Source of the DNA: a virus
UHGV virus genome: UHGV-0283311
Length of the DNA: 46,932 nucleotides
Strand: one strand, 5' to 3'
In this document: positions 1 through 34,429 of the stretch, piece by piece
Layout: every line of letters starts with the position of its first letter
How positions within the stretch are numbered: position 1 is the stretch's first letter
Program-made: the position numbers and the translations under genes
Notes under the pieces: model-generated
What the model was told of the DNA's origin: nothing
Database searches by the model: none
Seen by the model: only the letters and a program-made list of their open reading frames with translations

Positions 1-10
1 GAGACTTATC

Positions 11-145
11 TTTTTAAAAGGTCTTTAAGAGGGTCTTTTAATGAGGTTTCGCTAGGTAGGGTAGTGTCCGGTTGGGTCTGGTAAGGTCAGGTTAGGTAAA
101 GTGAGGTAAGGGTGGATGGTAGTAGCCACGTTAAAAATCTACCAA
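11..145 (+). repeat. Repeat unit copy 0: conserved 39-nt arm, (GGTNN)n pentamer tract, conserved-loop hairpin
   Basis: 11-49 is identical to 1280-1318; 50-116 is GT-rich with 5-nt periodicity; hairpin stem tggtag 117-122 pairs ctacca 139-144, loop tagccacgttaaaaat. Confidence 0.6.
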
Positions 146-201: not shown

Positions 202-807
<606 letters not shown>

Positions 808-809
808 TT

Positions 810-1250
810 ATGAATACAAAAGCATTAGCAGCAAAGTTTAGTTACGGTGACACTGTATCACACTCTGAGATGGACACCTTCTTAGGTATTGTGAAGCCAA
901 CTTATCAAGGTGACATTGTTAAGTACGAAGATGAAATGAAGGCTTATGCGCTTACACGTCTAAACCGACTTGAGAAGTTTATTGAGAAGCTTCTTAAAGA
1001 AGAGAAGATTTATCTGGTTGCTTCAATGGGTGTTGGTTATCGTGTGGTTGAACCTAAGCATCAAGCAACTATTGCAAAACGTAAAATGTCTGGTAAGATT
1101 GGTCGCGCTTTAAAGCAAGCCACTCAAGCGATTGAGAATGTGAACACTATGGCACTTAGCCATCAAGAACGCTCACGACTGATTGAACAGCAAAACCATT
1201 TAGCTGCTATGAAAGCTAACATTAACAAGCAACGTAGAAAACCTTTCTAA
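810..1250 (+). CDS. hypothetical protein
   Basis: 146-aa ORF, ATG 3 nt after upstream stop, RBS gaaggtaa; followed by terminator. Confidence 0.6.
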   Translation: MNTKALAAKFSYGDTVSHSEMDTFLGIVKPTYQGDIVKYEDEMKAYALTRLNRLEKFIEKLLKEEKIYLVASMGVGYRVVEPKHQATIAKRKMSGKIGRALKQATQAIENVNTMALSHQERSRLIEQQNHLAAMKANINKQRRKPF

Positions 1251-1261
1251 GTTGACTAGGT

Positions 1262-1288
1262 AGCCTCTTCGGAGGCTCCTTTTTAAAA
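1262..1288 (+). terminator. Rho-independent terminator
   Basis: agcctc-ttcg-gaggct hairpin followed by cctttttaaaa. Confidence 0.7.
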
Positions 1289-1673
1289 GGTCTTTAAGAG
1301 GGTCTTTTAATGAGGTTTGGTATGGTCAGGTATGGTGTGGTGTTGTAAGGTTTGGTGCGGTCAGGTTAGGCTTGGTATGGGTAGTTAATCGGAGCTACAT
1401 AAAAATCCGATTACATCACTTAAGAGTCTTCTAAGAGGGTTTTTAAGTGGTGTTTGGTAGGATAGAGTAAGGTAAGTTAAGGTAGGGTGAGGTCTGGTAT
1501 GGTAAGGTAATGTATGGGTAGTTAGTCTCAGCTACATTAAAATGAGACTCACATCACTTAAGAGTCTTTAAAAAGGGTTTTTAAGTGTTGTGAGGTGATG
1601 TAAGGTCGGGTATGGCTATATCTTGTATGGTTTGGTATGGAAGGATGGCAGTAGCCTTATAAAAAATCTGCCA
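1280..1673 (+). repeat. Tandem array of three repeat units (A 1280-1413, B 1414-1549, C 1550-1673)
   Basis: Each unit has a conserved arm (ttaagagtcttctaagagggtttttaagtg-like), 11-14 in-register GTNNG pentamers, then a hairpin with conserved loop (gctacat[a/t]aaaa or tagccttataaaaaat) and covarying stem. Confidence 0.7.
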
Positions 1674-1691
1674 AATAAGCTATAAAATCTG

Positions 1692-1726
1692 TTGACAGTT
1701 CAGGTGTTATAGCTTATTTTTATACT
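1692..1726 (+). promoter_or_regulatory. sigma70-like promoter candidate
   Basis: ttgaca 1692-1697, 17-nt spacer, tatttt 1715-1720, then tatact; about 40 nt upstream of the 1765 gene. Confidence 0.4.
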
Positions 1727-1764
1727 CAACGTCATACAAAATTTAATATAACTTTGAGGTGTTT

Positions 1765-2148
1765 ATGAAAAAGATTTTATTAGCTGCTGCAATGGTTATG
1801 GCAATGAGTTTACCAGTTAATGCAACAGAACTGCCAAATGTGAACTTATCAGGTGTCCCAGAGGATACTTGCCAGATTGTAAAAGGTGTTGCTCTAGCTA
1901 ATGGTGAACTACTTAAACCAATCTCTGAAGAGTCTTTAACAGAGATGACTGATAAGGTAACTGACTACCAGTATCGTGTTCTTGCAGAGTATTTCCTGCA
2001 ATCTGCAAACATTAAAGAGAAACACCGTGATGATATTGATGTACAGGCGATGCTCAACCACCGTATCCAGTTTAAAGAAGATTTGATGCAAAAAGCTATG
2101 TATGGTGTGGAGTATTTCTTAGAAAACAGAAGCTGCACAGGTATTTGA
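1765..2148 (+). CDS. small secreted protein (signal peptide)
   Basis: N-terminus MKKILLAAAMVMAMSLPVNA resembles a Sec signal peptide; RBS gagg 5 nt upstream of ATG 1765 (track start 1759 is GTG). Confidence 0.6.
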   Translation: MKKILLAAAMVMAMSLPVNATELPNVNLSGVPEDTCQIVKGVALANGELLKPISEESLTEMTDKVTDYQYRVLAEYFLQSANIKEKHRDDIDVQAMLNHRIQFKEDLMQKAMYGVEYFLENRSCTGI

Positions 2149-2149
2149 T

Positions 2150-2362
2150 ATGGCTCTTAAAAAGTTACATCCCAGAAGCGGTTATGGTAAGATAATTGAC
2201 GATACAGACGGCTTTACAGTCTTTACAGTCATCTGTCAAGATGATTCACAGATTGAAAAGGCTCTTGATGATTATCTTAATGATGAACGTGAAAAGGTTA
2301 GGGCTACAAACATAGATTCATTGATTGACACTTCACGCAAACGGAAGAAGAAAGATGAATGA
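2150..2362 (+). CDS. small acidic hypothetical protein (candidate anti-defence partner of downstream HTH gene)
   Basis: 70 aa, acidic patches (IIDDTDG, DDYLNDERE); stop overlaps start of the HTH gene. Confidence 0.5.
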   Translation: MALKKLHPRSGYGKIIDDTDGFTVFTVICQDDSQIEKALDDYLNDEREKVRATNIDSLIDTSRKRKKKDE

Positions 2363-2654
2363 GGTTTTTGACCCTTATGCCCCACAAGATGATTGGGAGG
2401 CTGATAGAGAGGCTGAAATGGAGAGTTATATTTGTCCAATGGATGTAGACGAAATGAGAGACTTCGTTGCACATCGTTTTAAGAGAGAGATTAAATCCAG
2501 AGGTCTTTCTCAAGAGCAAGTCGCTAAAATTTGTGGCATCTCTCAAGCTCGTGTATCCAACATAATCCACCTCACTGGGAATGTCTCTCTTGAGTATATG
2601 TTGGAAGTATGTGAAAAATTTGGTGTTAATTTTAATTTAAGGTTGGCAGACTAA
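2355..2654 (+). CDS. HTH (XRE-like) DNA-binding protein
   Basis: LSQEQVAKICGISQARVSNI helix-turn-helix signature; track start 2325 is TTG, ATG at 2355 overlaps upstream stop. Confidence 0.6.
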   Translation: MNEVFDPYAPQDDWEADREAEMESYICPMDVDEMRDFVAHRFKREIKSRGLSQEQVAKICGISQARVSNIIHLTGNVSLEYMLEVCEKFGVNFNLRLAD

Positions 2655-2655
2655 T

Positions 2656-3015
2656 ATGAAACGTGAAAACATTATCCACTCTGAAAATTTCGCATTAGGC
2701 TTTTATGGTGTACCTACTCACCTTGAAAAGTATTATGGTGTAAAAATTCTTTCCAATCTCATTATGGCTTACAAAGATGGTAAGATTAAGCATACTGAGA
2801 AGAAACGTGTCATGGGCTATATGGCTGTAGGTTCAGCAATCTCGAACATTAAGTTGGAAACAACTAGCAGTCAGATTGTAAAAGACCACTTCATCAAAGA
2901 GCTTTACCAGAATCTTGATGGTGTAGATGTTCAGGCTGTTTGGCTAGATGTTGATGGTCACAACTACACAAGTTTTGTTTTTAAAAACGACGACATCAAG
3001 TGTCTGTTCCCATAA
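2656..3015 (+). CDS. hypothetical protein
   Basis: 119-aa ORF, ATG 2 nt after upstream stop. Confidence 0.55.
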   Translation: MKRENIIHSENFALGFYGVPTHLEKYYGVKILSNLIMAYKDGKIKHTEKKRVMGYMAVGSAISNIKLETTSSQIVKDHFIKELYQNLDGVDVQAVWLDVDGHNYTSFVFKNDDIKCLFP

Positions 3016-3028
3016 TAGGTGATTAACT

Positions 3029-3544
3029 ATGATTGATATCTACTTACAAGATGCTCATGCAGATTTCCTTAAAGAGATGCTTAAAAAGTTTATGGCTTCA
3101 CAGTATGAGAATGAAGCATCTTTTAAAATAGTTACATGTGGCGACGAAGCTGGTTTTGTTGAGATTGAACATGAAGATACTGGAAAGACTGTTTGTAAGT
3201 TACCTGATAGCATGTTCTCTAACACGTTCTTAACAAAGACTAGTATAAATGTTAAGCTTGTGCCTCAGATTGAAACATACTCTGGTACAGATTACCCTAA
3301 AGGTTTTAAGTCACTGATGAAGTACTTCTTAGATGACTTTGTGGGTAATCTTCTGAGGGAGGTAAAAGAAAGTCGTACAGTGTTGACTGTAGAGAACATG
3401 GGAGGAACTATCAAGGTCACTTCTGACTGTTTTGTTATGAGCCTCTTCGACTTCGTTCCTAAGAACTTTGATGGTATTCTGGATGAAGAAGATGACTGTG
3501 TAGACTTTATATTGGTTCTTGAGCCAGTTTTTGAGGTTAAATAG
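3029..3544 (+). CDS. hypothetical protein
   Basis: 171-aa ORF with RBS aggtga. Confidence 0.55.
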   Translation: MIDIYLQDAHADFLKEMLKKFMASQYENEASFKIVTCGDEAGFVEIEHEDTGKTVCKLPDSMFSNTFLTKTSINVKLVPQIETYSGTDYPKGFKSLMKYFLDDFVGNLLREVKESRTVLTVENMGGTIKVTSDCFVMSLFDFVPKNFDGILDEEDDCVDFILVLEPVFEVK

Positions 3545-3805
3545 ATGAAAATTGAATACTGCTATGAGTCTGATGGAACACCTATACGTTGTCCACATTG
3601 TGGGTGTACAGACTTGCAAGGTGAGGTGAGTGAAATAGTCAACGGTCATATTGCTGAAGAGAGCACAAGGTGTACAGGGTGTAGTGAAATCATTGCTTTC
3701 TGGGCTTATGGTTCATACCAACCTACACCGCACTTAATCTACCATAGCAATAAAGCTGTGAAGAATGTTATCAACTGGTTCATTAAGAGAGGGTTTACAA
3801 AATGA
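3545..3805 (+). CDS. zinc-ribbon protein
   Basis: two Cys pairs (CPHCGC ... CTGC), ATG directly after upstream stop. Confidence 0.5.
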   Translation: MKIEYCYESDGTPIRCPHCGCTDLQGEVSEIVNGHIAEESTRCTGCSEIIAFWAYGSYQPTPHLIYHSNKAVKNVINWFIKRGFTK

Positions 3806-4347
3806 TTAAATTAATCTTTGCAAGTGGTGAAAATGGAGAGTTTGGTACTCCAACTGGTATGCCGTGGCCTCGACATAAACAGGACATGCAAGAGTTTAAG
3901 AGACTCACTAAAAATAACTTAGTAGTGATGGGTAATGAGACTTTCAAGACTCTGGGGAGTAAACCTTTACCAGAACGTGCAAATCTCATCTTAACAAATT
4001 CTGTACCATACTTAGGCATAGATTTTGGCAAAGATGATGTAATGTATGCTAAGGCCAACAAAGAATCCTTTGGAGCATTTTTGAAGTATCTTGATAGTTC
4101 TATTGATGAAGATGTCTTTGTAATTGGTGGTGCAGGTGTCCTTGTCAATGCTTTACCGTATGCTGGTGTGGTGTTCCATACAGTCTTCCATAAAGTTACT
4201 GAAGAGGCCACTGTGCATTTACCTTTTGAAAACTTCTTCGATAAACTGTATGATAGCCGTGTATTTGCAAAGGTGCAGTCAAGACCCTCAGATGATGGTA
4301 AAGCAACCTTTGAGATTTATGTTCCACAAGTAAAAGGACACTTTTGA
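3802..4347 (+). CDS. folA: dihydrofolate reductase
   Basis: GMPW and FKRLTKNNLVVMGNETFKTLG align with the E. coli FolA N-terminal motifs as recalled; VIGGAGV glycine motif. Confidence 0.8.
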   Translation: MIKLIFASGENGEFGTPTGMPWPRHKQDMQEFKRLTKNNLVVMGNETFKTLGSKPLPERANLILTNSVPYLGIDFGKDDVMYAKANKESFGAFLKYLDSSIDEDVFVIGGAGVLVNALPYAGVVFHTVFHKVTEEATVHLPFENFFDKLYDSRVFAKVQSRPSDDGKATFEIYVPQVKGHF

Positions 4348-4348
4348 T

Positions 4349-5248
4349 ATGTCACAAGCTGATTTGAGTTACAAAAATATCCTGAACCATGTTTTATCCG
4401 TTGGTGAACTGCGTACTACACGAACTGGGGATGTTATCTCTGCATTTGCTCCACCTCAGTTTCGTTTTGATATGCGAACTGGTTTCCCGCTCTTAACATC
4501 TAAACAGGTGTTTACACGGCAAGTCATTGGGGAAGCTTTATGGTTCCTGAATGGTGAGAATAAACTTGGTGAACTCCGTTATCGCACTTGGGGTGAAAAT
4601 GATGGAGAACGTTGGACTATCTGGTCAGATGATTTTAAACGTTGGTTAAGCTCTAACTATTCTTCTGAGCAAGACTGGTTAGAAGATGCAGGTGGGAGAA
4701 TCTACGGGGTTCAGTGGAGAAACTTTGAAGGTCATAATGGTTGTGTTGTAGACCAGTTAGAAACCTTAGTAACGAAGATGAAAGGTGATATCACAGACCG
4801 TTACATGCTTGTTAATGCTTGGAATGCAGCAGATATTGCAGCAAACTCAATGGCTTTAGCACCTTGTCATGTTCTGTTTCAGATTTATATCACCAACGAA
4901 GGTGAAGTTGACTTGCAATGGTATCAGCGTTCTGTAGACACCTTTTTAGGGCTTCCATTTAATATTGCGTCTTATGGTTTTATTCTGGAAGTTCTTTGTA
5001 AGATGACTGGATACACTCCACGATACTTGATAGGTGTCTTTGGGGATACTCAGATTTACCAGAACCATATGAAGCAGGTTTATGAACTGATGAACAATGA
5101 AGAGTTCCATGCACCTACTTTTGAGATTGGTGTGCAGCTTAACACTTTAAGTGACTTAAAACATCTTACTGCAAGTGATTTTGTTGGTGGCATTAACAAC
5201 TACCAACATGCAGGGAAGATTGAAGCACCTCTGTCAGTAGGCAAGTAA
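4349..5248 (+). CDS. thyA: thymidylate synthase
   Basis: MALAPCHVLFQIYI (catalytic Cys), YQRSVDTFLGLPFNIASY, GVQWR and GDTQIYQNHM match ThyA signature blocks; adjacent to DHFR. Confidence 0.85.
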   Translation: MSQADLSYKNILNHVLSVGELRTTRTGDVISAFAPPQFRFDMRTGFPLLTSKQVFTRQVIGEALWFLNGENKLGELRYRTWGENDGERWTIWSDDFKRWLSSNYSSEQDWLEDAGGRIYGVQWRNFEGHNGCVVDQLETLVTKMKGDITDRYMLVNAWNAADIAANSMALAPCHVLFQIYITNEGEVDLQWYQRSVDTFLGLPFNIASYGFILEVLCKMTGYTPRYLIGVFGDTQIYQNHMKQVYELMNNEEFHAPTFEIGVQLNTLSDLKHLTASDFVGGINNYQHAGKIEAPLSVGK

Positions 5249-5255
5249 AACAAAA

Positions 5256-5279
5256 AAGGCTCCTTTTTACGGGAGCCTT
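5256..5279. terminator. bidirectional terminator between convergent genes
   Basis: aaggctcc ... ggagcctt hairpin with A-run on one side and T-run on the other. Confidence 0.65.
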
Positions 5280-5284
5280 AAACT

Positions 5285-5656
5285 TTATTTTTCAGTATTC
5301 TTTGTGTTCTTTTCAGTAATAGCTTGGAGGGCTGATACTGATTGAGCCAGATTGTTCACACTGTCAGAGAATTTATCAAGAGTTTTGGTAAGTTTTGCGT
5401 TTTCACCCTTAACATTCTCTAACTGAACTTTCTGGTTCTCCATCCCTAGCTGAATCAGTCTCATGTCAGACTGTAAATCACGAATAGCTGAATAGTTACT
5501 TTTGGAATAATTATCTAGCTGCTGTAACTTTGTTGTGACAGACACTTCTTGTTTACCACTTGAAACCTGCATCGTGGTATACATCCCAATAACACTAAAA
5601 ATACCAACTACAATTGCACCAATATTATTTTTAAAAGCTTCCTCTAGCCACTTCAT
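5285..5656 (-). CDS. membrane-anchored coiled-coil protein
   Basis: N-terminal hydrophobic segment IGAIVVGIFSVIGMYTT then heptad-like helix; RBS gggggag. Confidence 0.5.
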   Translation of the reverse strand: MKWLEEAFKNNIGAIVVGIFSVIGMYTTMQVSSGKQEVSVTTKLQQLDNYSKSNYSAIRDLQSDMRLIQLGMENQKVQLENVKGENAKLTKTLDKFSDSVNNLAQSVSALQAITEKNTKNTEK

Positions 5657-5850
5657 TTATTCTCCCCCTTAAAAGCTTTTTCTAAGTTATCTACGAACTC
5701 ATCATCAATAGGTGTGTCTGTTTTACTCGCAAGGTATCTTGCAAGCCTAAAGAACACTTTCTCAATCATGTATTCACTTAGAAGGGATAAAATGAGTTTC
5801 CAGAAGAAGCTACCTAGATTTTTTAGAAGAATTGCTAGGATTGTAGGCAT
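5653..5850 (-). CDS. small hydrophobic protein
   Basis: 65 aa, hydrophobic N-terminus, RBS gaggtga; stop overlaps next start. Confidence 0.45.
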   Translation of the reverse strand: MPTILAILLKNLGSFFWKLILSLLSEYMIEKVFFRLARYLASKTDTPIDDEFVDNLEKAFKGENK

Positions 5851-5929
5851 TTAATCACCTCATCAGCCAAGATGGTGAGAATACCCATAAAGAATATTAA
5901 CACCATCTTAACAATCAGTCAACAAGGGA

Positions 5930-8317
5930 TTAAGCAGTTCTTACCCAAGCCATTAACTTGTAGAACTGGTTAGTAACACTAAATGCCGAACCAGAACCTG
6001 TGCTACCAGTGTTACCACTAACTGTGTGGCTATGAGCACCAATACCTACAGAGTGGGAATGGTCACCAGCACCGCTTGTAGTACCAGACCACGTGTGTGT
6101 ATGGTTACCAGTTGTGTTAGTGTTAGGGAACTTGTTATCTTTTCTATCAAGCCAGTCAAGAGTTCTTGTCTTGCTGTTGCTAACAGTTGTGTAACCATAC
6201 TGAGCATCACCACCATTAACTAATAACAGACCTAAGTGGTGAGCGTGGTTGCCAGCAGCACTTGTTGTACCACTTACAGAGTGAGAATGACCACCAGTAC
6301 TGTTAGTTCCCTTCGTACCATAATCAAAAGATGAAGTGGTAGCAGAGAAGCTATGGGTATGTGATGGTAAGTTCCCAACAGCTAACGTCACAGAATCTGA
6401 ACCACCAGTTGTAGCAACATCTGAACCGTTTGCTGCTGCAATTCTGATAGTTCTACCAACACCATTATTCAGGTACGTCCAAGTTAGACCAGGCAACGCT
6501 GTGTTAGGGTCAACATTACTGTTAAACCACGTTACAATGCCTACTGGATAGATTTTATTAAGGTCTGTAGAGTCACTAATTGCTGTTGCAATTTTCTGGT
6601 CAGTTTCTACTTTAGTGTATGCACCAATATCTGAAGGGGTTGGTTTAAATGCCGTTGAATACAACTGTGCCTCTCCAACATATGCTCCATCTGACCCATA
6701 AGCGTATGTGAAGACATCAAGACCTCTAGACCCATATGTAAAAGCGATACCTCTGGCATGAGCAATACCAGCAGAATGTGCTACATGGATGGCTAAATCT
6801 TTCAGACCCTGCTCAATAGCGTTGTTTCTTACAAATCCTGAATAATCTTTGTTGAATGATGATGGGTCATCCAGTCTATTAGCTGTCCTTGTCATTAAAG
6901 ATTGGTTTAATAGTTTTGTTTTCAAGAAATATCTAGCATCTAAGTTAGAGAAATCTGAAGGTTGAACTTGACCAGTAATTCTGACATTTTTATCCAACAA
7001 GAAATCATCTTGCATATAAAGCGTAGTTGCAGTTCTGTCGTTACGGATAGTAAACCTTGTTGGGTTGGATGGTTCCCCATTACCGATGTACCACCTTCTA
7101 ACACCATCAGCATTATGACCAGCAAAGTATAGCTCTCTGTCTTGTGTAGTGTTCTTTAGCTGTAATAATGAGCCATTCAGATTGATAACCTGTACAGACC
7201 TGAAAGTGTTTACATCACTTAGTTTAGCAAGATTACTCAAAGTAGCCGCTGGAATGTATCTAGAATCAATGTTAGACCAATCAGAAGGTTGAACTTGACC
7301 AGCAACCCTAAGCTGCTTGTTAACCTCAACAAAACCATTATCAAGTCTAAGATTAGAGCCATACGTATAGTTGTGGATTAATACAGCAGGTGTATTATCA
7401 CCATTACCTACATACCACTTACCAGAGCCATCACTACTTTCACCTTTAATGTATAGTGCACCATTTGCTATAGTATTTTTTAACCTTAATGCGCCGCTAT
7501 TCGTTAAAATTGATACAGCTTGGTTAAACGTATTAACACCACTAAAAGTATTATTCGCAGCTAACTGTGCAAATCTCTGATTAGCCACTGTCTGAGTAAA
7601 GTATCTAGCATCTAAGTTAGCAAAACTTGAAGGCTGAACTTGGCCAGCAATTTGAAGAGTCCTGTTGACTGTCACCAAATTCTCTAAAATAGCAATTGAA
7701 ACGTCGGACTTTACATTCTTTAATACAAGATTATGTGTACCCCTATTATCATTACCTAGATACCATCTGTTAGTACCATCTGCATCTTGACCACGAAGAT
7801 AGAGTGGAGCACCTTGAGTGATATTTTTGATAATGAGTGCTTCATTGTCAGAGAGGATAGCTTGAGTACCTCTAAAGGTGTTATTTACAGCAAGTCTTGC
7901 ATATCTTGCATCATTCTCTTCATTAGTTCTCATACCAAGCTCATTAGGACTTGGCTTATTCAGAGTATGATAAACGGTTGCCGACCTTGAAGCATCTGCA
8001 ATAGTCAGTTTAAGGCCATTTGCGTTAATTTTAAAAGTCTTTAAAACATCCCCAATATTAATCTCAGAAGAGCCTGTTGGGTTAAATACTACCTTACCAC
8101 CATAAAGTAACTTAACAATCCCTAAGTCACCTGTCATAGTGCTACCAGCAATCTGAACAAATCTCTCAAGTTTAAAAGATGCTAAGAAGTCTTGATAGGT
8201 CATTCGACGGTCTTCATCACCTAGCATTTCAGGTCTCTTTTTAACCCTGACATGAAGAAGGTCATCTGAACGGATTGTATCGATTGAGTTTAATTCACTC
8301 AACTTGTAATCTGCCAT
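5930..8317 (-). CDS. tail fiber protein with His-rich C-terminal tip
   Basis: four internal repeats each ending in an Asn/Gly-rich block ([32 protein letters not shown]); C-terminal HxH-rich [32 protein letters not shown]; position in tail module. Confidence 0.7.
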
Positions 8318-8336
8318 TATAAATTTTCCTCTTAAA

Positions 8337-8354
8337 AGGGGCTATCAAGCCCCT
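8337..8354 (-). terminator. GC-rich hairpin between the two fiber genes
   Basis: aggggct-atca-agcccct; minus-strand transcript has hairpin followed by TTTTAAG. Confidence 0.35.
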
Positions 8355-8363
8355 GTAAAGAAA

Positions 8364-9551
8364 TTAAGCTGTTCTCTGCCATACATACAGTACAAAGGAT
8401 GGCTGCTCAATGTTGAAAGCTTGTCCACCACCAACACTATTAGTGTTCCCGCTATGCGTATGCTCAGAAGAAGAAACTGTTACAGTACCATTGTGTGTAT
8501 GTGAACCAATACCAACTGTGTGGCTGTGAGCACCAATACCAACCGTATGGTTGTGGTTACCAGTTGTGTTAGTGGTAACACTGAAAGAGTGGCTGTGAGC
8601 ACCAGCGACTTCACAGACAGCATCTGCTGAGTACCATGATTGGTCATTTCTTGAAGACCAAACCATTGCAGGTCTTTCAGATAAACCACCACCTGATTCA
8701 TAGGTCAATCTGTGGTTATGAGCACCAGCAGCACTTGTTGACCCACTGCCAACATGGTTGTGGTTACCAGTCGTGTTAGTGGTCTTTGTTCCATAGTCAA
8801 AAGAGTTGGTAGTCTTAGTTCCATAATCAAAAGCTGAAATTGACACAGTTGCATTATGAGTGTGACCACCACCACTAAGAGACACGGAGTGTGAATGTTG
8901 AGGCATGTTATTAACTGACAAAGTGACAGTTGAAGCACCAAATACAGAGCCTGCTGGTCTTGTATCAGAGTCATAACCAACCAATGCTCTACCTTTTGAA
9001 ACTAACTCCCAAGTTCCTCCACAAATTAAATACGTAGAAGGGTTTGCAGAGTTCATGGAAAGATGGATAGTACCTACTGGATAAGAAGCCTGAACAGCCT
9101 TGTACAAGTTATTTACTGCTCTTGCTGTAGCATACTTATCTGCATCTTCGTTATAAAGGTTAGATGTTGTCCAGTTCTGAACATTACTCAATCCTACCTG
9201 TGCCTTAGTTGTATTATGTGGGTTGCTCTTGTCCTGAATATGCTGTTGAACAAGATTATTAACCTCTTCTGAAGACATAATCTGTAGATTTGCTCTTGCC
9301 TGAGCTACATTAGTAACGTCTGATAAGTTATTTGCAGCAACTAACTGAAGAGCATTGATAACGTTATCTAAACCAATTTGTGTTTTAGTAACACCATGAG
9401 GGTTATTTCTTAGGCTTGAGTGTGGAGCAAGTAATTGCTCAAGAGTGCATCTCTTATCCTCAATACCTTGTTTAAGATGGAAGATATCACTAAGGTCAAT
9501 TGGTAAGGCTGCTTGAGGCAAGGCACTAATTTGAATTTCACCTACTGCCAT
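8364..9551 (-). CDS. tail fiber protein (second, shares His-rich tip)
   Basis: C-terminal [25 protein letters not shown] and SFDYGTKTTN repeats paralogous to 5930..8317. Confidence 0.7.
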   Translation of the reverse strand: MAVGEIQISALPQAALPIDLSDIFHLKQGIEDKRCTLEQLLAPHSSLRNNPHGVTKTQIGLDNVINALQLVAANNLSDVTNVAQARANLQIMSSEEVNNLVQQHIQDKSNPHNTTKAQVGLSNVQNWTTSNLYNEDADKYATARAVNNLYKAVQASYPVGTIHLSMNSANPSTYLICGGTWELVSKGRALVGYDSDTRPAGSVFGASTVTLSVNNMPQHSHSVSLSGGGHTHNATVSISAFDYGTKTTNSFDYGTKTTNTTGNHNHVGSGSTSAAGAHNHRLTYESGGGLSERPAMVWSSRNDQSWYSADAVCEVAGAHSHSFSVTTNTTGNHNHTVGIGAHSHTVGIGSHTHNGTVTVSSSEHTHSGNTNSVGGGQAFNIEQPSFVLYVWQRTA

Positions 9552-9553
9552 TA

Positions 9554-17572
<8,019 letters not shown>

Positions 17573-34100: not shown

Positions 34101-34177
34101 TGGAGGCGGGTGCAGGAGTCGAACCTGCCGATACCATGCTAATGAGACATGTGAGACGCCCTTTCTCTATACCCGCA
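34101..34177 (-). tRNA. tRNA(CAT): Met, fMet or Ile2
   Basis: loop CTCATTA, D-stem gaga/tctc, 1-72 mismatch; isotype unresolved. Confidence 0.6.
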
Positions 34178-34267
34178 ATTCTTAATGACCAGACCAAATA
34201 TCTTCTTTGTCCGATTAACTTTCAGATGAGTAGATTAAGTTTGCTGTAATTGGTCTTCTGTCAAAAC

Positions 34268-34345
34268 TGGCGTTCCAGAAGGGATTTGAACCCTCAGATA
34301 TCCACTTTGAAAGAGTGGTGACTTTACCGTTTTGTCTACTGGAAC
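34268..34345 (-). tRNA. tRNA-Glu(TTC)
   Basis: perfect acceptor gttccag/ctggaac, perfect anticodon stem ccact/agtgg, loop CTTTCAA. Confidence 0.8.
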
Positions 34346-34352
34346 ATTAATT

Positions 34353-34429
34353 TGGTCTCTGTTGGAGGACTTGAACCTCCGGCCTTACCGCCCCAAACGG
34401 AACGCTCTACCAAGCTGAGCTAAACAGAG
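34353..34429 (-). tRNA. tRNA-Pro(TGG)
   Basis: perfect acceptor and T-stem, D-arm gctc-agcttggta-gagc, loop TTTGGGG. Confidence 0.75.

Follow-up and report, generated by a model that had tools for sequence, protein, structure and literature searches.

VIPR, first described in 2026, is a phage-encoded system of RNA-guided DNA silencing (10.64898/2026.04.26.720920; 10.64898/2026.04.26.720927). Its parts include a ~20-kDa RAMP-fold protein, Vipr, and an accessory gene, vap, and the experimentally characterized type II example is that of phage SUSP1 (10.64898/2026.04.26.720920). Small-RNA sequencing of SUSP1 revealed ~100-nt vrRNAs, one upstream of vipr-vap and three downstream, and these vrRNAs co-purify with Vipr (10.64898/2026.04.26.720920). 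Within the SUSP1 clade, which is defined by >90% identity to SUSP1 Vipr, the vrRNAs flanking vipr-vap contain 9-16 YNNGG repeats in which GGY is conserved and NN is hypervariable, and they carry an invariable tail of ~40 nt for which a covariation analysis and a hairpin-plus-pseudoknot model are given in Fig. S9 (10.64898/2026.04.26.720920). The molecular structure of the SUSP1 tail pseudoknot has been obtained by cryo-EM (Fig. S8 of 10.64898/2026.04.26.720927).

In the SUSP1 system one Vipr protomer is bound per repeat, with GGY sequestered (10.64898/2026.04.26.720927), and the NN bases pair with double-stranded DNA, skipping every third base, to give a triplex R-loop that represses transcription (10.64898/2026.04.26.720920; 10.64898/2026.04.26.720927). 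In the DNA-engagement intermediates the protomers adjoining the pseudoknot (subunits 8-12) are always visible, and further protomers resolve, apparently in the 3'-to-5' direction (10.64898/2026.04.26.720927). The guides of the SUSP1 clade are directed against a satellite phage of E. coli that has a baseplate gene similar to that of the phage itself, and satellite-encoded vrRNAs are mentioned as well (10.64898/2026.04.26.720920). Expression, co-purification with Vipr, binding of double-stranded DNA and repression are known only for SUSP1 and a P. fulva system (10.64898/2026.04.26.720920; 10.64898/2026.04.26.720927).

We found a locus of this kind at the beginning of a 46,932-nucleotide stretch of viral DNA (UHGV-0283311; the window), which belongs to a Felix O1-like myophage with ~94% identity to many Escherichia and Salmonella Felixounavirus genomes. 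The hairpins that end its four repeat units are almost certainly stem 2 of the 3' tail pseudoknots of four vrRNAs of a type II VIPR system of the SUSP1 clade. The locus runs from vrRNA(s) through vipr (220-807, plus strand) and vap1 (810-1250, plus strand) to three more vrRNAs, and the wider synteny of DNA ligase, vrRNA(s), vipr, vap1, three vrRNAs and next operon is common to the window and SUSP1. Far from this locus, at 29275-34429 on the minus strand, lies a cluster of 25 tRNA genes, probably a typical feature of Felix O1-like phages; an Rfam covariance-model search of the whole window at the gathering score returned only tRNAs (24 matches), with none in 1-1800.

The window's Vipr, a 195-residue protein of the RAMP fold that would polymerize on vrRNA, is 98% identical to SUSP1 Vipr, a value that exceeds the >90% criterion and thereby places the locus in the SUSP1 clade. 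Its AlphaFold2 model (pLDDT 93) has the RAMP fold, in agreement with the hallmarks of a Vipr (~20 kDa, one RAMP/RRM fold bearing a G-loop and a thumb), and it is the sole RAMP-fold protein at the locus. The residues of SUSP1 Vipr that contact GGY are H17, E71, M72, R138, C173, D177, W178 and R179 (10.64898/2026.04.26.720927), and in a pairwise alignment all eight are found at the same positions in the window's protein. As an independent check, we aligned 45 Vipr homologues, among which R138 and R179 are invariant and H17 nearly so. The accessory gene vap1 directly follows vipr; its product is 99% identical to its SUSP1 counterpart, matches phrog_5926 and is predicted to bind DNA (10.64898/2026.04.26.720920). 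Vipr, Vap1 and the satellite ORF that one of the guides targets (see below) all lack a Pfam family.

The four repeat units lie at 7-163 (u0), 1276-1412 (u1), 1413-1550 (u2) and 1551-1673 (u3). A unit (~137 nt) consists of a spacer hairpin of ~40 nt, then 9-14 NNGGY pentamers, which make up the guide, and then the 3' tail; the units are 60-71% identical to one another, and their variable part is itself a 5-nt repeat. The period-5 GGT pattern is matched 28 times in the window, against 0.04 expected, and every match falls within the four guide tracts. On the plus strand these tracts occupy 43-112 in u0 (14 pentamers, the first inside the spacer hairpin and the last, AAGGG, reaching into the tail), 1312-1381 in u1 (14 pentamers), 1454-1518 in u2 (11 good pentamers plus 2 degenerate ones) and 1592-1641 in u3 (9-10 pentamers, the most degenerate of the four). 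The initial annotation, which had singled out the hairpins, was silent on the nature of the units, in which the 5-nt NNGGY tract is the VIPR guide and the hairpin its 3' cap.

Besides these four tracts of 9-14 repeats, the window holds one unit cut by its edge. Positions 1-7 (plus strand; GAGACUU) are the 3' arm of a tail hairpin belonging to another vrRNA farther upstream. This arm is identical to that of the AGUCUCA/UGAGACU class, and the AUCUUUUUAAAAGG spacer that comes after it is shared with phages KPS64 and heid, both of which have two upstream units. Since 1-7 is the tail arm of another vrRNA, as in KPS64 and heid, the locus has at least two upstream guides. For comparison we assembled 53 units from 14 phages, namely the window and 13 relatives (SUSP1, SUSP2, Moogle, KPS64, wV8, heid, ASO1B, Mushroom, VSe102, CL1, SPJ41, tootiki and vB_SflM_004). 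Homologous tracts have 8-18 repeats each, and over 47 distinct tracts the entropy of the two N positions is 1.94 and 1.90 bits, versus 0.77 and 0.19 bits for the two G positions and 0.43 bits for Y.

The hairpins were described in the initial annotation as closing each repeat unit, and this is borne out in all four units, with the arms where they had been placed: GGTAG 118-122/CTACC 139-143 in u0, AATCGGA 1387-1393/TCCGATT 1406-1412 in u1, AGTCTCA 1524-1530/TGAGACT 1543-1549 in u2 and GGCAG 1647-1651/CTGCC 1668-1672 in u3, to which a sixth pair is added in u0 (T117-A144) and u3 (T1646-A1673). Their folding energies are -7.9 to -10.7 kcal/mol. Because four bases of each loop complement four bases just upstream of the hairpin, the tail is an H-type pseudoknot. 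The 5' strand of the second helix, S1, begins at the Y of the last pentamer, just 5' of the S2 hairpin, and its pairs are GUGG/CCAC in u0, GUAG/CUAC in u1 and u2, and AAGG/CCUU in u3. From 5' to 3' the tail thus comprises S1 (4 bp), a 1-2-nt linker, S2 (6-8 bp), a 1-3-nt linker, S1', a 7-10-nt A-rich loop and S2', and both helices pair in all four window units. The plus-strand coordinates are 112-144 in u0 (S1 112-115/126-129, S2 117-122/139-144), 1381-1413 in u1 (S1 1381-1384/1395-1398, S2 1386/1387-1393 with 1406-1412/1413), 1518-1549 in u2 (S1 1518-1521/1532-1535, S2 1524-1530/1543-1549) and 1641-1673 in u3 (S1 1641-1644/1655-1658, S2 1646-1651/1668-1673).

The loop had been taken to be conserved and to be the part that is recognized. 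Its A-rich portion (AUUAAAA and similar) is indeed kept, but the CUAC/CCAC/CCUU portion varies and covaries with the bases upstream, and the idea of a recognized loop gives way to a second helix, S1, which four of the loop bases form and in which three of four pairs covary. Classical H-type pseudoknots, such as those at viral frameshift sites and in the preQ1 riboswitch and telomerase RNA, have the order S1-L1-S2-L2-S1'-L3-S2', with an L1 of 1-2 nt spanning an S2 of 6-8 bp and an A-rich L3 opposite a short S1. The tail shares their strand order and geometry, and by this analogy its A-rich loop would lie in the minor groove of S1; it differs in being unrelated to frameshifting or ligand sensing and in ending a protein filament on a guide RNA.

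Evolutionary evidence for this fold comes from an ungapped alignment of 16 distinct tails drawn from the 53 units. Scoring of covariation over the units and their homologues, which had been set as a check, gave pairing far above the controls: 87.5% of cells pair in the tail structure, versus 26-42% after a shift of the 3' partners by 1-3 columns, and none of 500 shuffles matched the observed pairing or covariation score. Both-sided changes are found in 9 of 12 pairs (3 of 4 in S1 and 6 of 8 in S2), and the one-sided stem changes are G.U and hence compatible with RNA, as in the replacement of UCCGAUU by UUCGAUU opposite AAUCGGA. Compensatory changes together with such G.U-only substitutions uphold the proposal that selection acts on RNA structure. 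Unpaired substitutions are few and at outer stem positions, with one A.C mismatch each in Moogle and tootiki, and vB_SflM_004 has one degenerate tail. The tails differ mainly from one to another of four paralogous classes and little within a class, so that the independent double substitutions number about 8-10. Covariation among four paralogous copies, by sequence alone, revealed a genuine structured RNA element.

The four tail classes are nearly invariant across phages whose guide tracts differ completely, and they occupy characteristic places. The GGUAG/CUACC class adjoins vipr in 12 of the 13 phages that have an upstream unit, the GGCAG/CUGCC class is the last in the downstream array, and the AAUCGGA and AGUCUCA classes are internal. 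SUSP1 itself has AGUCUCA/UGAGACU and GGCAG/CUGCC tails, and the u0 tail is base-for-base identical to that of SUSP1 vrRNA1; the AAUCGGA/UCCGAUU class of u1 is not found in SUSP1 but is common in Felix O1-like phages. Two satellite islands encode a 13-repeat vrRNA of their own with a u0-type tail and no annotated vipr (L140, 4129-4193, and L146, 4807-4871, both on the minus strand), and that of L140 adds one further compensatory S2 pair, A-U to C-G.

The window locus is therefore like SUSP1 in layout, Vipr, Vap1, the sequence of the u0 tail, the hairpin-plus-pseudoknot fold and a YNNGG tract within the 9-16-repeat range, and it differs in the NN sequences of its guides and hence in their targets. 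The observation of four covarying hairpins is correct, and it is already explained by the VIPR preprints, which between them cover the tail covariation and the pseudoknot structure of the same clade.

Could the hairpins instead be ordinary terminators or plain 3'-end stabilizers that serve small RNAs or the vipr-vap operon and play no part in an RNA-guided complex? Like a Rho-independent terminator, each closes a small transcription unit, at the folding energies given above, and at some junctions in other phages, as well as at window positions 1-15, a five-U run follows the AGUCUCA/UGAGACU hairpin three bases past the stem. At the four window hairpins, however, the GC-rich stem, 3-8-nt loop and U-run of a terminator are absent: no T-run lies behind any of them, as had been noted from the start, the stems are AT-rich, the loops measure 12-16 nt and a second, interleaved helix is present. 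The terminator scan was negative at all four, in keeping with the earlier verdict that they are not simple terminators, and its only hit in 1-2000 was a separate GC hairpin with a U-run between vap1 and the downstream array (AGCCUC-UUCG-GAGGCU, 1262-1277, plus strand). Termination would also leave unexplained both the covariation of the second helix and the pseudoknot seen by cryo-EM on the Vipr filament, and we regard this reading as very improbable.

Still less credence attaches to the idea that the inverted repeats act as DNA, in the form of protein-binding palindromes or cruciforms such as origin iterons or operators for Vap1 or a neighboring HTH regulator. The units are tandem, AT-rich and intergenic, they lie among DNA-metabolism genes, and DNA binding by Vap1 is predicted (10.64898/2026.04.26.720920). 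A DNA site would be expected to keep its sequence, yet the arms differ completely between classes with their pairing preserved; substitutions that would give G.T are tolerated, as suits an RNA but hardly a palindrome in DNA; nothing in a DNA duplex corresponds to the pseudoknot topology; and the homologous SUSP1 units are RNAs by published small-RNA sequencing (10.64898/2026.04.26.720920). We likewise assign next to no weight to pairing as a chance by-product of diverged tandem duplication, with the structure itself unselected. There are only four tail classes, and related sequences can outscore column shuffles without any structure, but the slid-partner control retains that relatedness and the pairing nonetheless collapses. 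Moreover, about ten independent double substitutions have left Watson-Crick pairing intact in both of the interleaved helices, the satellite-encoded vrRNA contributes another compensatory pair, and the tails stay near-invariant between phages with wholly different guides. Other readings of the repeat tract were considered and dropped, namely a sponge RNA that titrates a ring-shaped RNA-binding protein (with TRAP-like GAG/UAG repeats, CsrA GGA sites or Hfq ARN repeats), G-quadruplexes of two tiers formed by (GGNNN)n, a replication origin of the R-loop type, an array of recognition sites for primase, standby sites resembling Shine-Dalgarno sequences and, on the opposite strand, an anti-Rho or rut element, because none explains the conserved GGY, the free NN and the RAMP-fold neighbor together.

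Each vrRNA, as a tail-capped guide of the VIPR type, is preceded by a spacer hairpin. Type A spacers stand before u0 (8-47, RNA fold of -10.7 kcal/mol) and u1 (1278-1315, placed by its fold and the consensus of 21 spacers), and type B spacers before u2 (1413-1453, -19.1 kcal/mol, z -6.4) and u3 (1549-1593, -18.2 kcal/mol, z -5.5), all on the plus strand. Across 21 distinct spacers from the 14 phages, the consensus hairpin has 16 pairs, of which 5 are compensatory, and three near-invariant G.U. Its 3' arm holds a conserved 'first pentamer', GAGGU/GAUGU, which does not pair with the u1 target. Since ~40 nt is what remains when a mature vrRNA of ~100 nt is subtracted from a unit of 137 nt, the spacer hairpin is a candidate processing site.

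With the strong terminator-like hairpin at 1262-1277 in front of it, the downstream array may be transcribed by read-through or from promoters of its own. A sigma-70 promoter scan detected none inside the units, and a unit promoter read by hand, TTAAAA-N17-TTTAAT, was rejected, as its -10 hexamer is missing the key A in second position. A sigma-70-like promoter of the next operon, TTGACA-17-TATTTT at 1692-1720 (plus strand), marks the end of the VIPR locus.

We tentatively raise the possibility that the tail pseudoknot and the spacer hairpin together are maturation signals of the vrRNA array, with tail classes that are position-specific. A double-strand-specific host RNase of the RNase III type, or Vipr itself, might cut in the spacer hairpin, after which the pseudoknot would block 3' exonucleases and set the end of the filament. 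Divergence of the tail classes may serve to curb recombination among the tandem units, or it may give each array position its own level of processing or expression. Maturation of the type II array, a role of the spacer hairpin and position-tied tail classes are not addressed in the available portions of either preprint (10.64898/2026.04.26.720920; 10.64898/2026.04.26.720927).

The main target of Felix O1-like guides is the satellite island, which a search with the SUSP1 gene placed in 474 of 5,426 complete E. coli genomes (~9%). The island is ~11-13 kb long, interrupts yecE (DUF72) or adjoins tonB (for example, L141 at ~1000-14380) and carries genes for a tape measure, a baseplate protein, a serine recombinase, an HNH endonuclease and sometimes Dam; the baseplate gene has 71-85% DNA identity to that of SUSP1. 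In a scan of ten island variants (L137-L146), 26 of 47 guides reached a match of at least 85% under the 1-nt-skip rule, and only 0-1 guides did so with skips of 0, 2 or 3 bases or with shuffled NN order. The 1-nt-skip rule is thus independently replicated with Felix O1-like guides.

Among the window's own guides, u1 has the clearest target. With a 1-nt skip, 24 of its 26 positions match a satellite gene, twelve consecutive dinucleotides perfectly, in antisense to the first ORF of the satellite operon (6716-6753 in L141 and 7111-7148 in L143); other skip rules gave 17-18 matches and shuffles at most 19, and the skipped base falls at codon position 3, the wobble position, as is characteristic of targets of the SUSP1 clade. 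The u3 guide matches the 5' end of satellite serine-recombinase genes at 16 of 18 NN positions, again with the skip on the wobble position, a match that is suggestive but borderline, being no better than the best of 30 shuffles. For u0 and u2 no target was found in the ten satellite variants, in IMG/VR (exact 1-nt-skip patterns) or in GTDB representative genomes; the 9-dinucleotide core of u0 had 9 matches in unrelated taxa among the GTDB representatives, where ~17 are estimated by chance, and so gave no signal. The window itself contains no match to any of its four guides.

By analogy with SUSP1, from which vrRNA maturation, 3'-end definition and Vipr binding in the window phage would be carried over, the units would be transcribed from the plus strand, and a Vipr protomer would bind each NNGGY repeat, sequestering GGY and presenting the NN dinucleotides. 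The NN bases would then pair with double-stranded target DNA, every third base being skipped, and this pairing would silence genes of the competing satellite phage. The tail would be the constant part of each guide, a 3' cap that protects or defines the 3' end and fixes the end of the filament, and the stems may vary from one tandem unit to the next because the constraint is on the fold alone.

This arrangement resembles the crRNAs of class 1 CRISPR systems, in which a variable guide likewise ends in a constant structured cap, the repeat-derived handle (such as the Cas6-bound 3' stem-loop of types I-E and I-F), and a helical RAMP-fold filament coats the guide, with bases flipped out at a fixed period. 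In VIPR, however, three bases are sequestered in every 5-nt period, in contrast to one base flipped per 6 nt in CRISPR, and the cap is a pseudoknot and not a simple hairpin. The VIPR target is read discontinuously (NN, skip 1), and the guide lies inside the repeat tract instead of between repeats. The window has no CRISPR array, cas1/cas2 or Cas6; its units are not near-identical repeats with unique spacers, and no Rfam CRISPR family is matched.

Pentamer tracts extend well beyond this clade. Distant vipr homologues with 32-43% identity are found in Pseudomonas, Mycobacterium, Gordonia and Listonella phages, and in Medea1 a 12-repeat tract with a different tail follows the vipr-vap pair (L135, 3572-3631). 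A scan of IMG/VR for six GGTNN repeats matched at least 120 contigs, many of them from unrelated phages with degenerate, intergenic NNGGT arrays (for example, L024, L026, L034, L038, L098 and L106); because such arrays recur in unrelated phages, the pentamer tract is a widespread phage element. The flanks of the IMG/VR arrays (L003-L122) are of other kinds, for example a T-run right after the array or a repeated AACUAACUG leader, and these arrays probably belong to other VIPR types.

Within the phage collection, vipr is present in 130 records, ~118 of them >90% identical, and the VIPR-carrying Felix O1-like phages have E. coli, Salmonella, Shigella and Citrobacter as hosts. At the DNA level, 255 phage records match the 3-kb region, versus only 130 with vipr, and a sizeable share of Felix O1-like phages may therefore be without a VIPR system. 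Only recently described, VIPR recognizes DNA by RNA guidance, with a RAMP filament that reads the guide discontinuously, and the preprints propose that it is older than CRISPR (10.64898/2026.04.26.720920; 10.64898/2026.04.26.720927). With its constant tail and fast-changing guides, it is standard equipment of many Felix O1-like phages.
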